Of a stretch of 24,000 bases of DNA, positions 7,050 through 11,295 are shown in pieces. Made by a program: the position numbers and the translations under genes. The stretch is from an uncultured Actinomycetes bacterium (GTDB taxonomy: Bacteria; Actinomycetota; Acidimicrobiia; IMCC26256; BP-133): positions 272,096 through 296,095 of the forward strand of contig CAWBJP010000001.1 in assembly GCA_963789165.1 (NCBI GenBank). The letters are read 5' to 3'. The notes beneath the pieces are model-generated. The model saw only the letters and a list, made by a program, of their open reading frames with translations, did no database searches and had not been told where the DNA came from. Within the stretch, counting starts at the first letter, position 1. Every line of letters begins with the position of its first letter.

Positions 7050-10000
7050 TCAGGCGTTGAGCTGCTGGCTGGCCAGGTAGTAGTAGAGGCCCTGGAGCGC
7101 CATGAGCTCCTCATGGGTACCCGACTCGACCAGGCGGCCCTTCTCCAGCACCACGATGAGGTCGGCCCCCCGCACGGTCGAGAGCCGGTGGGCGATGACC
7201 AGCGACGTACGCCCTTCCAGGAGCTGATCCATGTTCTCCTGCACGGCCCGTTCCGACTCGGTGTCGAGGGCGCTGGTGGCCTCGTCGAGGATGAGGATGG
7301 GTGGACGGCGGTAGACGGCCCGGGCGATGGCCACCCGCTGGCGCTGCCCGCCGGACAGCAGCAGCCCGCTCTCCCCCACCTGGGTGGCGTACCCCAGGGG
7401 CAGCCGGACAATGAAGTCATGGGCGTTGGCCACCCGGGCGGCCCACTCCACCCGCTCCATGTCGGGGATCTCGCCGGAGGAGATGTTGCCGGCGATGGTG
7501 TCGGAGAAGAGGAAGTTCTCCTGGAGGACGAACCCCACCTGGCGCCGGAGCTGGCGGTAGTCGAGGGTGGCCAGATCCACGCCGTCGTAGCTGACCCGGC
7601 CCTCGGTGGGTTCGACCAGGCCCACGAGGCATTTCACCAGGGTCGTCTTCCCGGAACCGCTGCGGCCGACCACGGCCACGGTGGTCCCGGGGGGGATGTC
7701 CAGGGTGATGTCGGACAGGATGGGGGGCGCGTCGGCCCCTCCGTAACGGAACCCGAGGCCCTCGAGGCGGATCCCACCCTCCAGGGTGGGGACGGGCAGC
7801 AGGCGGGAGCGGTCGCTCCCCTGCTCGGGCTCTTCCTCGAAGATGTCGTTCAGGCGGTTGAGGAGCACGGAGACGAACTGCAGGTCGTCCCACAGCAGCA
7901 GCAGCACGGCCACCGGGGCGCTGGCCAGGGCGATCAACGTGTTGAAGGACACCAGCTCGCCCACGGTCATGGCCCCGCCCTGCACCTGGCGGGTGCCCAA
8001 CCACAGGAACGCCCCGAGGGAGGCGAAGGTGATCACCTGGCTGGTGCCGGCGTAGAGCATCCGCACCAGGTCGGAGCGGAACTGGCGGTCGGCCAGGGTG
8101 CGGAACTCCTCCACCATGCCCATCCGCAGCACGTCCTCGTTGCCCAGCGCCTTGACCGTCTCGATCCCTTTGATGGCATCGATCTGGCGGGATGAGTACC
8201 GGCCGAAGGCCTCCTCCAGGCTCTCCACCATGGGCCGCAGCCGCCGTTGGAAGGCCCGCATGACCAGGGCGTAGACGGGCATGCCGGCCACGTAGACCGC
8301 ACCCAGCTTCGGGCTGTACACGAACATCAGCACCACCGACCCGGCGAGCTGGGCGGTGGCGGTGACGGCCCGAACGCTGTGCTGGACGACGAACTCCCGG
8401 ATCTGGCGCATCCCGGCCAGGCGCCGCTGGACGTCGCCCGTCCGCCGGCTGGTGAAGTAGGACATGGGCAGCGCCAGCATGCGGAGAGCGACGAGGTCGA
8501 GGGTGCCGGCATCCATCCGCACCGCGGCCCGGCTCATGACGTAGCGCTGGGCCGACGAGGCCAGGAGCATGAGCACCAGAGCCCCGCCCAGGGTCGGTCC
8601 GAGCACCTTCCACAGTCCGGTGTCGCCCTCCCCCAGCACCCGGTCGACGATGAGCTGGGTGAAGATCGGCACCACCAGGGTGAGGGCGCTGACCACGAGG
8701 GCGAGCCCGGTGGCCAGGGCCAGCGGGCGGGCGAAGGGGCGCAGCATCGGCCGGAGCCAGGCGAAGGACGGCTCGGTCCCGGCCGGATCGCCGAACCGCT
8801 CCGTGGGCGCGAACAGGGCGGCGTAGCCGCTCCACTGCGCCTCGAACTCGGCCCGGGACAGACGCTGGGGTCCCGCCGCCGGGTCGGCGATCCGCACCCG
8901 GGAGGCGCCCACGTCGTAGACCACCACCCAGTGGTTCCCACCCCAGTGGACGATGGCGGGCAGGGGCAGGTCATCCAGGTTGCGCATGGACGACTTCACC
9001 GCCCGGGCCGACAGGCCGAGGGCCCGGGCCCCGTCGGTGATGCCCTTCAGGCTCGTCCCGTCGATGGCGGTGCCCACCACCTGGCGGAGCCGGGCCTGGC
9101 TGATGCGACGCCCGAAGTGGCGGCAGACCATGGCCAGGGCCGCCGCCCCACAGTCGGCCTCGTCCACCTGCCAGACCTGGTGCAGCCGACGGATGCGTCG
9201 CCGCCGTCCCGGGGCCTGGTCGCCAACCTCTTCGGCGGGGGCCGGGGCGGCGTCGGGTGGGGGTGACCCGATCTGGTCGGGGCCGACCGGGCCGCTTCGG
9301 GCGGCGTCGGCCGGAAGGATCTCGTCGGTGAAGTCGAGGGGGACACGGGCCGCCTTGCGGTATCGGTACTGTTCGACCAGGGCGGCCACCGCGGTGCGGA
9401 ACTCGCCGTGTTCGGAGAGGAGCCGGTGGAAGGCGGCCTTGCGCAACACCAGGAGGCGGGCGTCGGACACGGCCCGCACCGAGGCGGTCCGGTGCGTGCC
9501 TTCCAGGAGGGCCCGCTCCCCGAAGATGTCGCCCGTCCGCAGGTAGGAGAAGTCGCGGCGCTCGCCGCCGGCGTCGCTGTAGGCGGCCAGGCGCCCCGCC
9601 TCCACGAAGTACATGGCGTCGGGCTCATCGCCCTCGGTGAGGACCACGTCACCCCGGCGCACCTCCAACGGCTCCATCTCGGCCAGGGCGGCCCCGACCG
9701 TGTCGTCGGGCAGGGTGGAGAAGACGGGTGACTGGCGGAAGAGGTTCTTGAGCGCCCGGAAGCGGGCCAGGAGGTCGAAGTACTCCGTCACCCGGGGGTC
9801 GGTGGCCCGCAGGGCATGGAACACCACCGCCGGGAGCCGCAGGGCCTCCACGGGGCTCCGGGCCCGGATGGTGGCCCCCCGCACCTGCCCCTCGAGCAGG
9901 GCCGACTCGCCGAACACGTCGCCCGGGCCGAGGATGCCGAGGGACACCTCCTCCCCGCCCAGACCCTGGCGCAGGGCCCGGGCCCGGCCCGAGACGATGA

Positions 10001-10163
10001 CGTAGAGGGCGTCCGCCTCCTGGCCCTCCTCCACGATGACGGCCCCGAACGGGTAGCTGACGGGCTGGAAACTGGCCGCCACGAGGCGGCGCACGTCGGC
10101 GGGCATGAGCCCGAAGAGGGGCAGGTCCTCGAGGACGAAGGGGCGGTCGTCAGTGACGCTCAT
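7050..10163 (-). CDS. Peptidase-containing ABC transporter (PCAT): two cyclic-nucleotide-binding domains + C39 cysteine peptidase + 6-TM ABC membrane domain + ATPase
   Basis: An intact 1037-aa ORF. CNB1 has GDVFGESALLEGQVRGATIRA. CNB2 has GDIFGERALLEGTHRTASVRA, a canonical FGE...RTA phosphate-binding cassette. The C39 domain carries the catalytic Cys (QVDEADCGAAALAMV), His (GNHWVVVYDV) and Asp (RIADPAAG). The ATPase has Walker A GRSGSGKTT, signature LSGGQRQR and Walker B ILILDEATSALD. The start overlaps the upstream gene by 14 nt. Confidence 0.9.
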   Translation of the reverse strand: MSVTDDRPFVLEDLPLFGLMPADVRRLVAASFQPVSYPFGAVIVEEGQEADALYVIVSGRARALRQGLGGEEVSLGILGPGDVFGESALLEGQVRGATIRARSPVEALRLPAVVFHALRATDPRVTEYFDLLARFRALKNLFRQSPVFSTLPDDTVGAALAEMEPLEVRRGDVVLTEGDEPDAMYFVEAGRLAAYSDAGGERRDFSYLRTGDIFGERALLEGTHRTASVRAVSDARLLVLRKAAFHRLLSEHGEFRTAVAALVEQYRYRKAARVPLDFTDEILPADAARSGPVGPDQIGSPPPDAAPAPAEEVGDQAPGRRRRIRRLHQVWQVDEADCGAAALAMVCRHFGRRISQARLRQVVGTAIDGTSLKGITDGARALGLSARAVKSSMRNLDDLPLPAIVHWGGNHWVVVYDVGASRVRIADPAAGPQRLSRAEFEAQWSGYAALFAPTERFGDPAGTEPSFAWLRPMLRPFARPLALATGLALVVSALTLVVPIFTQLIVDRVLGEGDTGLWKVLGPTLGGALVLMLLASSAQRYVMSRAAVRMDAGTLDLVALRMLALPMSYFTSRRTGDVQRRLAGMRQIREFVVQHSVRAVTATAQLAGSVVLMFVYSPKLGAVYVAGMPVYALVMRAFQRRLRPMVESLEEAFGRYSSRQIDAIKGIETVKALGNEDVLRMGMVEEFRTLADRQFRSDLVRMLYAGTSQVITFASLGAFLWLGTRQVQGGAMTVGELVSFNTLIALASAPVAVLLLLWDDLQFVSVLLNRLNDIFEEEPEQGSDRSRLLPVPTLEGGIRLEGLGFRYGGADAPPILSDITLDIPPGTTVAVVGRSGSGKTTLVKCLVGLVEPTEGRVSYDGVDLATLDYRQLRRQVGFVLQENFLFSDTIAGNISSGEIPDMERVEWAARVANAHDFIVRLPLGYATQVGESGLLLSGGQRQRVAIARAVYRRPPILILDEATSALDTESERAVQENMDQLLEGRTSLVIAHRLSTVRGADLIVVLEKGRLVESGTHEELMALQGLYYYLASQQLNA

Positions 10164-11124: not shown

Positions 11125-11142
11125 GCGCCGGGTGACCCGCTC

Positions 11143-11295
11143 CTAGCCCGATCCGCCCTTGCCGCCCTGGCCCGTGGGGTCGGCGTCGTCGGCGGCGGCG
11201 CCCCCCTTGATGTTCTCGGCGTCGGACGGCTCCGGCTCGAGGTCCTCGAGCTCGTCGACGTCGTCGGTCGGCCCGGCGGCGCGGATGTCGTTCAT
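11143..11295 (-). CDS. 50-aa precursor micro-peptide with an acidic double-glycine-type leader: MNDIRAAGPTDDVDELEDLEPEPSDAENIKGG | AAADDADPTGQGGKGGSG
   Basis: ATG at 11295 is preceded by GCGAGGGG with a 5-nt spacer. In the C-terminal 18 codons, 17 of 18 third positions are G/C, which fixes the frame across the G6 run. ...SDAENIKGG resembles the LSxxELxxIxGG leader end cleaved by C39 peptidases. It is the first gene of the operon that ends with a catalytically intact C39-ABC exporter. Confidence 0.65.
   Translation of the reverse strand: MNDIRAAGPTDDVDELEDLEPEPSDAENIKGGAAADDADPTGQGGKGGSG

Follow-up and report, generated by a model that had tools for sequence, protein, structure and literature searches.

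A 24,000-nt stretch of DNA from an uncultured soil bacterium of the Actinomycetes (GCA_963789165.1, contig CAWBJP010000001.1, positions 272,096-296,095; hereafter the window) carries a three-gene operon for processing and exporting a small peptide with a double-glycine (Gly-Gly, or GG) leader. In order on the minus strand, its genes encode a 50-residue precursor peptide, a 324-residue helper protein with a SurA-like fold, and a 1037-residue transporter in which two cyclic-nucleotide-binding (CNB) domains stand ahead of a C39 peptidase and an ATP-binding cassette (ABC) exporter (Table 1). The evidence presented here supports well a GG-leader processing and export operon with an obligatory SurA-like helper and a transporter that bears a nucleotide-sensor module. 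We further consider it reasonably probable that the operon is devoted to maturing and exporting a small hydrophilic peptide that is probably unmodified, and that a CNB module resembling the regulatory subunit of protein kinase A (PKA-R) makes cleavage or export dependent on a nucleotide. From sequences and structure models we infer the binding of the leader by the helper, the exact cleavage site, gating by a nucleotide, the nature of that ligand, and what the peptide does biologically.

A conserved operon encodes a precursor with a Gly-Gly leader

A preliminary description of this DNA had proposed three tightly packed, co-directional genes, the first of them for a 50-residue GG-leader peptide. 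Our analysis bears this out: the peptide stop codon and the helper start are separated by 18 nt, the helper and transporter open reading frames (ORFs) overlap by 14 nt, and each of the three genes is on the minus strand, which had been left unstated. No frameshift was found within the operon or the divergent cyclase gene described below. In a window of ~71% G+C, the G+C content at third codon positions of the two large ORFs is 0.90-0.94; taken together with the in-frame conservation of the small ORF in eight orthologous loci, the features of the operon lie far beyond chance, and we conclude that the locus is a genuine conserved system. Scanning the operon for sigma-70 promoters and terminators gave nothing beyond chance level, and an Rfam scan of the whole window returned two tRNAs only, with no riboswitch 5' of the operon.

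The precursor consists of a leader, MNDIRAAGPTDDVDELEDLEPEPSDAENIKGG, followed by a predicted core, AAADDADPTGQGGKGGSG, and the Shine-Dalgarno sequence GAGGGG lies 5' of its ATG. A hidden Markov model (HMM) trained on 21 leaders was run over every six-frame segment of the related loci, with reversed sequences as a control. It gave the window leader 26.2 bits, the highest control score being 10.2 bits. As would be expected of the peptide gene proposed earlier, the small ORF is kept in frame in the eight orthologous loci (64-95% helper identity), where insertions and deletions occur only in multiples of three. Across these loci the leader stretch (D/E)ELEDLEPEPxDAEN[IV]KGG is invariant, and the core is acidic, Gly/Ser-rich and 14-18 residues long, with the usual ending GKGG[SG][SG]; in the closest orthologue pairs, synonymous changes in the core outnumber non-synonymous ones. 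The end of the clade core, GGKGG[SG][SG], also places a second K-G-G two residues before the C-terminus, which resembles the leader cleavage motif [IV]-K-G-G.

Related leaders are found well beyond this clade. Among the genome loci, the HMM returned 135 matches, against 8 in the reversed sequences, and at least one ORF scored at least 11 bits in 43 of 86 loci; on independent metagenome loci, 25 matches were obtained against 0 in the control. Across 81 unique leaders the motif is [LIVM]-x-[DE]-[LIVM]-(x)-P ... [VIA]-[KR]-G-G, with Pro after the D-L element in 62 of them and a variable spacing of ~5-14 residues between D-L and G-G. The family cores have a median length of 20 residues, are richest in Gly (15%), then Ser, Thr, Arg, Lys, Asn and Pro, and are poor in hydrophobic and aromatic residues (Cys in 6/81). 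In other phyla they are highly diverse, and acidic residues are missing from many. The precursors gave no matches to Pfam and NCBIfam models.

The position of the peptide genes differs between the actinobacterial loci, where they lie directly upstream of the helper gene, and the diderm loci, where they lie 6.6-7.3 kb downstream, past genes for an HlyD-family adaptor and a PspF-like sigma-54 activator (an AAA+ domain plus a helix-turn-helix [HTH], without a receiver domain), and often number two to four in tandem. A strict sigma-54 promoter consensus 5' of the diderm peptide genes was matched in 1 of 23 cases. In 10 verrucomicrobial loci (L055, L062, L065, L068, L070, L071, L075, L079, L081 and L082), the tandem GG-peptide genes, here ~6.4-7.3 kb downstream of the helper gene, are preceded by the relaxed but conserved element TGGCA[CT]G-N4-xTG[AT]T, a putative promoter whose -24 box is perfect and whose -12 box is atypical; the first small ORF of these arrays has the leader ...LIRLDDLIPKxNVSGG.

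Helper and transporter form a near-obligate pair

To define the distribution of the system, we searched a helper profile against representatives of 50%-identity clusters, which yielded 2535 representatives at E <=1e-3 and 910 at <=1e-30. Scanning one genome per species, we found helper relatives in 233 species. The best 80 of these plus one further locus, L001, formed a set of 81 loci; later neighbor and leader analyses used 86. The best 80 loci come from Acidimicrobiia, Gemmatimonadota, Acidobacteriota, Verrucomicrobiota (Chthoniobacterales, "Ca. Udaeobacter"), Solirubrobacterales, Binatia, Rokubacteria and Nitrospirota; all derive from metagenome-assembled genomes of uncultured relatives, and the closest helpers among them (69-76% identity) belong to Acidimicrobiia.

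A gene of the CNB-CNB-C39-transmembrane domain (TMD)-nucleotide-binding domain (NBD) type adjoins the helper gene in 80 of the 81 genome loci, as it does in the window. Usually it lies immediately 3' of the helper gene; a peptide gene stands between the two in two loci, and the order is reversed in one. The sole locus without the transporter is a Rokubacteria locus whose helper match is partial. In the reverse test, with the transporter N-terminus as the query against metagenome contigs, 65 loci had at least 1 kb of upstream sequence, and the helper was present in 62 of them, directly upstream of the transporter in 59. Since the linkage holds in both directions, helper and transporter are an almost obligate pair. 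The survey thus yielded the linkage that the preliminary description had asked about, with transporter homologues standing beside both relatives of the 324-residue protein and short GG-leader ORFs. When neighboring ORFs were clustered across the 86 loci, only the helper, the transporter, an HlyD-like adaptor (carried by diderm relatives) and the sigma-54 activator recurred; no ATP-grasp gene was found among the conserved neighbors or in Pfam-annotated contexts.

The transporter joins a tandem CNB module to a C39 peptidase and an ABC exporter

The domain composition put forward earlier for the 1037-residue protein was reproduced in full by Pfam profiles: two stretches of cNMP_binding (PF00027; E 5e-45; 151.7 bits), Peptidase_C39 (1.7e-37), ABC_membrane (PF00664; 1.6e-39) and ABC_tran (PF00005; 3.9e-33). 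The ABC motifs are legible in the translation (Walker A GRSGSGKTT, signature LSGGQ, Walker B ILILDEAT, H-loop IAHRLST). Among NCBIfam exporter models, scores were high but under the cutoffs, with 510.8 bits against 853.3 for TIGR03796 (NHLM_micro_ABC1), 517 against 725 for TIGR01846 (type_I_sec_HlyB) and 392 against 524 for TIGR01193 (bacteriocin_ABC). Residue conservation was scored in an alignment of 71 homologues from several phyla, to which "conserved" and "family" refer for the transporter. Here the C39 (PF03412) residues Gln332, His411 and Asp427 are present in 71/71 and Cys338 in 70/71, so that the peptidase is, as judged by its residues, catalytically complete family-wide. The protein therefore has the marks of a peptidase-containing ABC transporter (PCAT): the C39 Gln/Cys/His/Asp set, an exporter TMD and NBD, and a gene for a GG-leader substrate nearby.

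Both CNB domains (CNB1, FGESALLEGQVRGA; CNB2, FGERALLEGTHRTA) carry a phosphate-binding cassette, FGE...RGA in CNB1 and FGE...RTA in CNB2. The latter had been described as canonical, and it is also conserved across phyla: Gly215 and Glu216 occur in 71/71 homologues, Arg225 in 70/71, Ala227 in 54/71, and Ser or Thr at position 228 in 69/71. The F-G-E of the CNB1 cassette is found in 70-71 of 71. Over residues 1-270, the tandem module best matches PKA-RI and the cGMP-dependent protein kinase (PKG), both in sequence (E ~1e-22) and in fold (E ~1e-20 over ~260 columns).

Between the module and the peptidase runs a linker (residues 271-319) that is predicted to be disordered, with a per-residue model confidence (pLDDT) below 50. 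This tether holds one of the most conserved stretches of the transporter, A-x-[VI]-P-[LI]-D-[FL]-x-x-E-[LMI]-L-P-A-[ED], in which Pro275 and Asp277 are found in 71/71, Glu281 in 70/71 and Pro284 in 68/71. A conserved linear motif within a disordered tether suggests a putative short docking site. We also considered whether the motif (VPLDFxxELLPA) acts in cis as a "pseudo-leader" and rejected this idea: the leader HMM scored below 3 bits on all transporter N-termini, and similar short matches occur at the starts of ordinary CNB domains. An AlphaFold2 model of the transporter (predicted TM score [pTM] 0.53) was uninformative on how the domains dock.

The helper resembles SurA/PrsA chaperones

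The preliminary description had called the 324-residue protein parvulin-like, which holds for its fold and is weakly borne out by its sequence. Among the parvulin-type models (PF00639/PF13145), the match to Pfam Rotamase_2 (E 0.0046, 18.2 bits) falls under the cutoff of 27. In an AlphaFold2 model built with 21 homologues (pLDDT 87.8, pTM 0.78), the protein comprises a helical chaperone module and a parvulin-fold domain. Its Foldseek neighbors are SurA, PrsA, HP0175/CBF2 and PEB4/Cj1289, and residues ~200-290 superpose on isolated parvulin domains with target TM scores of 0.6-0.66 (0.62-0.66 for 3gpk, 2pv1, 2kgj and 6xd8). The protein has no signal peptide, and its 21-sequence family alignment contains no invariant His; the invariant residues are F63, R64, L69, W78, L79, R95, A215, E217, L220, C221, D225, P272, P290 and W320. 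When the helper profile was aligned to E. coli Par10, which gave a very weak match (hhalign probability 3%), the Par10 strand GYHIIKV corresponded to GWRVTRV of the helper and Par10 His84 lay opposite an Arg. On the basis of the SurA/PrsA fold of the model, the absent signal peptide and the lack of an invariant His, we read the helper as a cytosolic SurA/PrsA-like chaperone whose parvulin domain is probably catalytically degenerate.

The nearest family with a studied member is TIGR04500 (PpiC_rel_mature), which the helper matches in its C-terminal half only (29.5 bits, E 4e-7; cutoff 180); similarly weak matches were obtained for 20 of 21 helper relatives (best E 1.3e-10). The TIGR04500 protein MirC, which contains a SurA-like chaperone domain, is the obligatory partner of the graspetide synthetase MirB; according to its authors it shows no similarity to an active peptidyl-prolyl isomerase (PPIase) domain and is proposed to act as a chaperone (PMC13097080). 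Because the helper scores under the TIGR04500 cutoff and no ATP-grasp gene is present, its sequence places it as a distant relative of MirC and TIGR04500 rather than a member of that family.

Leader and helper charges covary

We compared the net charge of the leader (its last 25 residues) with that of its partners across 60 loci. Leader charge was inversely related to helper charge (Spearman rho -0.67, p 4e-9, uncorrected for phylogeny), and this relation persisted when the acidic-leader clade was excluded (rho -0.46, p 9e-4, likewise uncorrected). Correlations with the CNB, C39 and TMD segments of the transporter were slight (|rho| <=0.17), and that with the NBD was weakly positive (+0.37). 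Since the inverse relation is seen for the helper alone, these data suggest that the helper may bind the precursor directly through electrostatic contacts. Together with the variable spacer between D-L and GG, the covariation further suggests that leader recognition could be bipartite, the helper reading D-L-x-P and the C39 domain reading [VI]-[KR]-G-G.

A class III cyclase gene is divergent from the operon in one clade

The operon genes had been described correctly in the earlier account of the locus, but three neighboring elements had been overlooked: a cyclase gene, an IS200/IS605 insertion sequence (IS) and a BldC-family gene. The cyclase protein matches Guanylate_cyc (PF00211; 39.9 bits, cutoff 21.9), nSTAND1, TPR_12 and TPR_MalT in Pfam, and HTH_77 is annotated in its orthologues. 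The best relative of its cyclase domain in the PDB is the mycobacterial adenylyl cyclase Ma1120 (E 6e-22), with which FTDIEGST, QGDAFF and AAR line up; both metal-binding Asp residues and the transition-state Arg are present. A cyclase gene is the divergent neighbor in all eight orthologous loci that have upstream flank (L001-L003 and L083-L087), the call in L087 being inferred from a truncated divergent ORF at that position. The window cyclase holds this orthologous position, and only the IS separates its gene from the peptide gene. We rejected cyclase linkage as a family-wide feature: outside the clade, a single unrelated cyclase-TPR gene was found, in L082.

The IS is recognized by Y1_Tnp, OrfB_IS605 and Cas12f1-like_TNB matches, and its flanks are contiguous in L085 and L083. 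The intergenic region on the peptide side is intact, still joined to the peptide gene and 74% identical to that of L085, with homology ending at position 11465. On the other side, the cyclase ORF now starts at an ATG sharing bases with the tnpB stop (ATGA) and has a GGGAGG ribosome-binding site. Its N-terminal MTE has been swapped for the 19-residue IS-derived sequence MNTPPKGIPRLQPREEVKE (encoded at 13141-13193), and the remainder is intact, with 74% identity to the L085 orthologue from end to end. Because the IS and the cyclase gene share an orientation, the cyclase may be expressed and translated as the third gene of the IS transcript.

Two further similarities concern the cyclase proteins. 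The L082 cyclase-TPR protein (3452-5866) and the window cyclase give weak matches of 26 and 32 bits to TIGR04510 ("putative peptide modification system cyclase"; cutoff 400), and the window cyclase scores 133 bits (cutoff 1125) against HaaT, a TPR protein associated with peptides that are synthesized ribosomally and then modified post-translationally (RiPPs). These scores hint that cyclase-TPR/STAND proteins may recur beside peptide systems.

Genomic surroundings

The ancestral arrangement is clearest in L085, where synteny extends from gltX to yceI in the order gltX, DUF5122-like, DUF218, divergent cyclase-STAND-HTH_77-TPR, peptide, helper, transporter, BldC-family gene, 196-residue protein, YceI. 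The gene for the BldC-family developmental regulator (NF033787 HTH_BldC, 93.5 bits, cutoff 77) lies 132 nt 3' of the transporter and is syntenic in L002, L003, L083, L085 and L088, in this clade only. A Pfam scan of 20 flanking ORFs identified AbiEii, transposase fragments, CCP_MauG, YceI, BldC, DUF218, GltX, LeuA/CimA and IlvE. Neither a modifying enzyme (ATP-grasp included) nor an HlyD-like gene was found in the 24-kb window, so the preliminary view that this does not look like a standard bacteriocin locus stands on both counts.

Relative to L085, four flanking genes are split by seven frameshifts: yceI (5152-5843), DUF218 (16578-17229), DUF5122-like (17273-19449) and gltX (19525-20872); tnpB, leuA, the operon and the cyclase gene are intact. 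Because gltX is normally essential, assembly indel errors are a more likely explanation for these frameshifts than pseudogenes. The region is bordered by tRNA-Glu(CTC) (3288-3361, minus strand) and tRNA-Gln(CTG) (16477-16549, minus strand). Beyond tRNA-Glu, positions 1-3300 hold an AbiEii toxin gene and transposase fragments, L085 having a phage-type integrase and a RES-domain gene there; this part looks like a variable integration hotspot.

Table 1. Features of the operon and its neighborhood, in window coordinates
Feature	Position (nt)	Strand	Basis
Precursor peptide gene, 50 aa	11143-11295	-	ATG start, Shine-Dalgarno, 8 orthologous loci
Peptide leader, residues 1-32, ending ENIKGG	11200-11295	-	ORF and leader HMM
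Predicted peptide core, residues 33-50, AAADDADPTGQGGKGGSG	11146-11199	-	ORF
Peptide stop codon	11143-11145	-	
SurA/PrsA-like helper, 324 aa	10150-11124	-	TTG start; AlphaFold2, Foldseek, TIGR04500 sub-cutoff match
CNB-CNB-C39-ABC transporter, 1037 aa	7050-10163	-	Pfam, NCBIfam
CNB domain 1, ~residues 10-145, cassette FGESALLEGQVRGAT	9729-10136	-	Pfam and 71-member alignment
CNB domain 2, ~residues 150-270, canonical cassette FGERALLEGTHRTAS	9354-9716	-	Pfam and 71-member alignment
Conserved linker motif, residues 272-286	9306-9350	-	71-member alignment
C39 peptidase domain, ~residues 325-460	8784-9191	-	Pfam and alignment
ABC exporter core: TMD residues 482-750, NBD residues 816-1037	7053-8720	-	Pfam
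Divergent intergenic (promoter) region, peptide gene/cyclase gene	11296-11465	.	L085 comparison
IS200/IS605 (tnpA 11567-11956, tnpB 11960-13144)	11466-13193	+	Pfam; L085/L083 flanks
Class III cyclase-STAND NTPase-TPR, 1096 aa	13141-16431	+	Pfam; Ma1120; L085 orthologue
BldC-family small DNA-binding protein, 65 aa (by homology)	6720-6917	-	NF033787

Proposed mechanism and alternatives

In the mechanism that we propose, the 50-residue precursor would be synthesized in the cytoplasm, where the helper would bind it, likely at h-x-D-L-x-P with the aid of charge complementarity, and hand it to the transporter. The C39 domain would cleave behind ...IKGG (Gly32), and the ABC core would export the 18-residue, acidic, Gly-rich core AAADDADPTGQGGKGGSG; because the organism is monoderm, no HlyD adaptor would be needed. 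The tandem CNB module would tie cleavage or export to a nucleotide second messenger, most likely cAMP or cGMP. In the Acidimicrobiia clade, the divergent cyclase-STAND-HTH-TPR protein would be the likely source of the signal, a transcriptional regulator of the operon, or both. We favor a second messenger because the CNB tandem matches PKA-R and PKG and because a divergent class III cyclase is the neighbor in this clade. From these similarities, gating by cAMP or cGMP, as against ppGpp or another ligand, is plausible, as is the supply of the signal by the neighboring cyclase.

Several observations weigh against this mechanism. In the cyclase, the substrate-specifying Lys is replaced by Asn (VVNTQGD, against VVKSQGD in Ma1120) and the transition-state Asn by His (VHRAAR, against VNxAAR), so that its activity and product are uncertain. 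By phmmer with two cyclase domains against all loci, its linkage to the operon is confined to one closely related, syntenic Acidimicrobiia clade and therefore counts as effectively one evolutionary event; in the window, moreover, the IS breaks the cyclase gene at codon 2, after ATGAC. On the sensor side, Arg95 of the CNB1 cassette is present in 49 of 71 homologues and missing from 22, and nucleosides are the ligands of some PKA-R-like proteins (6hyq and 6flo among the fold matches). The charge correlation ignores phylogeny, the short leader HMM picks up peptide genes in only about half the loci, and the helper's closest studied homologue works with an ATP-grasp enzyme, which might be encoded elsewhere in the genome. 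Finally, in HetC, a CNB-C39-ABC exporter of Nostoc/Anabaena PCC 7120, the N-terminal domain was bound and stabilized in vitro by ppGpp (Kd 59 uM), GTP and GDP and not by cAMP, nor was it stabilized by 2-oxoglutarate (PMC10986499).

The HetC result also supports the strongest of the alternatives, in which the CNB module would sense (p)ppGpp or GTP, export would follow the stringent response or nutritional state, and the cyclase-STAND protein would serve as a transcription factor only. The non-canonical cyclase residues and the restriction of the linkage to a single clade fit such a non-cyclic ligand, as does the combination of HTH_77 and STAND, which is typical of regulators. We nevertheless hold it rather unlikely, since the full CNB2 cassette F-G-E...R-[TAS]-A-[ST] is found in 70-71 of 71 homologues and the closest relatives of the tandem are genuine cAMP/cGMP receptors.

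We judge improbable a RiPP pathway in which the gene for the modifying enzyme, such as a graspetide ATP-grasp ligase, lies elsewhere in the genome, with the helper as the obligatory partner of that enzyme and the core cross-linked before export. In its favor, MirC, the helper's only characterized relative, is required by MirB and adjoins a PCAT, and the core contains Asp, Thr, Ser and Lys, residue types used in graspetide linkages. However, genes for an ATP-grasp or other conserved modifying enzyme were absent from the window, the conserved neighbors of the 86 loci and the Pfam-annotated contexts; the helper reaches 29.5 bits where TIGR04500 requires 180; the precursor has no NCBIfam match; and cores of other phyla are very diverse, many of them free of acidic residues. 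Since Pfam scans of the window gave no modifying enzyme, reading the locus as a RiPP cluster is unsupported.

We give slightly less weight still to a conventional locus for exporting a class II bacteriocin or microcin, with an immunity gene that is unrecognized or elsewhere and CNB domains that tune expression-level physiology. A GG-type leader next to a complete PCAT is the classic arrangement of such loci, and the best NCBIfam similarities of the transporter are to bacteriocin and NHLP exporters, but every one of these family scores is sub-cutoff. The cores are short, hydrophilic and of low complexity, and anionic in this clade; the operon has no small membrane protein as a candidate immunity gene; and the conserved partners are regulators (sigma-54 activator, cyclase-STAND) and a chaperone, with no immunity proteins. 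A signal or other non-antibiotic extracellular factor is a likelier identity for the exported peptide than a bacteriocin. Least probable of all is that the helper is an active PPIase acting on the leader Pro (D-L-x-P, EPEP) to make the substrate acceptable to C39: its parvulin fold and the Pro after D-L in 62/81 leaders are outweighed by the lack of an invariant His in its family, the Arg opposite the Par10 His (in the very weak alignment of 3% hhalign probability), a Pfam parvulin score under threshold, and MirC's likewise missing similarity to an active PPIase domain, a chaperone role having been proposed for MirC (PMC13097080).

Implications

Tentatively, and on balance we would not yet expect it, the family could represent an undescribed, widespread class of peptide secretion or signaling modules gated by a second messenger and defined by a PKA-R-like CNB-PCAT, an obligatory cytosolic helper of degenerate parvulin fold that reads D-L-x-P in a bipartite leader, unmodified short hydrophilic cargos and a dedicated regulator; within that same tentative proposal, the regulator would be the cyclase-STAND-TPR protein in Acidimicrobiia and the PspF-like sigma-54 activator in diderm phyla, and the Acidimicrobiia locus would be a self-contained circuit that senses, makes a cyclic nucleotide, and licenses cleavage and export.

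PCATs have usually been studied as constitutive exporters of bacteriocins or pheromones. With this family, gating of peptide processing or export by a nucleotide second messenger becomes directly testable. Within a few kilobases, it supplies the parts missing from HetC, the one CNB-bearing PCAT studied to date: a gene for the substrate, another for a helper and, within one clade, a cyclase that could produce the signal. The family is large (~2,500 clusters at 50% identity) and concentrated in abundant, poorly understood soil phyla, namely, Gemmatimonadota, Acidobacteriota, Verrucomicrobiota (including "Ca. Udaeobacter") and Acidimicrobiia, in which, to our knowledge, peptide signaling is essentially unknown. 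It also extends MirC-like SurA-fold partners from graspetide biosynthesis to systems without a modifying enzyme, which points to a general leader-handling function, and the charge covariation and bipartite leader provide concrete hypotheses of substrate recognition.

Comparison with known systems

Classical PCATs (PCAT1 of C. thermocellum, ComA, LagD and CvaB) share with the window transporter the C39 Gln/Cys/His/Asp set, the six-helix TMD and the NBD. They couple cleavage of the Gly-Gly leader to export, and by analogy the same is predicted here. In contrast, they have neither a CNB module nor a SurA-like helper, and their leaders place hydrophobic positions at a fixed distance from GG, whereas D-L-x-P here lies 5-14 residues away. 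Both window cassettes align with the FGELAL...PRAAT of PKA-R and PKG. Those proteins regulate kinases in eukaryotes and bear an inhibitor or pseudosubstrate segment, whereas the window tandem is fused through a predicted disordered linker to a peptidase-transporter. The helper shares with SurA, PrsA, PEB4 and Cj1289 a helical chaperone module made of N- and C-terminal parts with an inserted parvulin domain; that group acts outside the cytoplasm (in the periplasm or at the membrane's outer face), unlike the helper, which lacks a signal peptide and conserved catalytic histidines. The cyclase resembles mycobacterial Rv0386-type regulators, which begin with a class III cyclase domain of non-canonical substrate-specifying residues and continue with a STAND/AAA ATPase, an HTH and TPRs; we know of no link between Rv0386-type proteins and peptide export.

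Dirix et al. (2004) are said to have noted cNMP-binding domains on cyanobacterial GG-peptide transporters. Our full-text literature search for CNB-bearing C39 transporters returned the HetC paper only (PMC10986499). The peptidase and ATPase residues and the CNB region of HetC are needed for heterocyst differentiation, and its substrate is not known because a GG-leader gene is absent nearby (PMC10986499). Compared by its published description, HetC has the layout of the window transporter, an N-terminal cNMP-binding region of ~300 residues followed by an active C39 and an ABC exporter, with catalytic positions that are close (C347/H420 against C338/H411). Neither gene has an adjacent membrane-fusion gene, and a non-antibiotic signaling role has been proposed for HetC. 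They differ in that HetC has one annotated CNB domain and the window transporter two, and in that neither a GG-leader nor a helper gene is reported near hetC, whereas the window operon holds both. PteB of Synechococcus elongatus, to whose domain organization that of HetC has been called similar, is a C39 PCAT that secretes the GG-motif proteins EbfG1-4 for biofilm development, a non-antibiotic function (PMC4997328). Its substrates are larger proteins and no helper gene has been described for it, unlike the short peptide and helper of the window.

The closest parallel to the helper comes from the rosaritide mir cluster, which comprises the precursor MirA, the ATP-grasp enzyme MirB, MirC and the PCAT MirD; every one of the 325 group 21 graspetide clusters contains TIGR04500, and CNB domains of MirD are mentioned neither in the paper nor in its supplement (PMC13097080). 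MirC, like the helper, is a cytosolic, SurA-like, "PpiC-related" protein of ~320 residues that is encoded beside a PCAT and a precursor carrying a PCAT cleavage site; it acts as a non-catalytic partner or chaperone. Unlike mir, the window and ~150 related loci lack a graspetide synthetase, and the precursor falls outside TIGR04497. The earlier remark that no functional description was known thus holds for the three-gene architecture, but not for its related parts, which HetC (2024), MirC (2026) and PteB/EbfG represent. In the literature we found no account of the three-gene architecture without ATP-grasp, nor of how widely it occurs or how hydrophilic its cargos are. As judged from sequence comparison, then, the kind of system is already known, namely, PCAT peptide export with a partner protein, and what appears to be new is the set of CNB-PCAT, helper and peptide without ATP-grasp, together with its distribution and its hydrophilic cargos.

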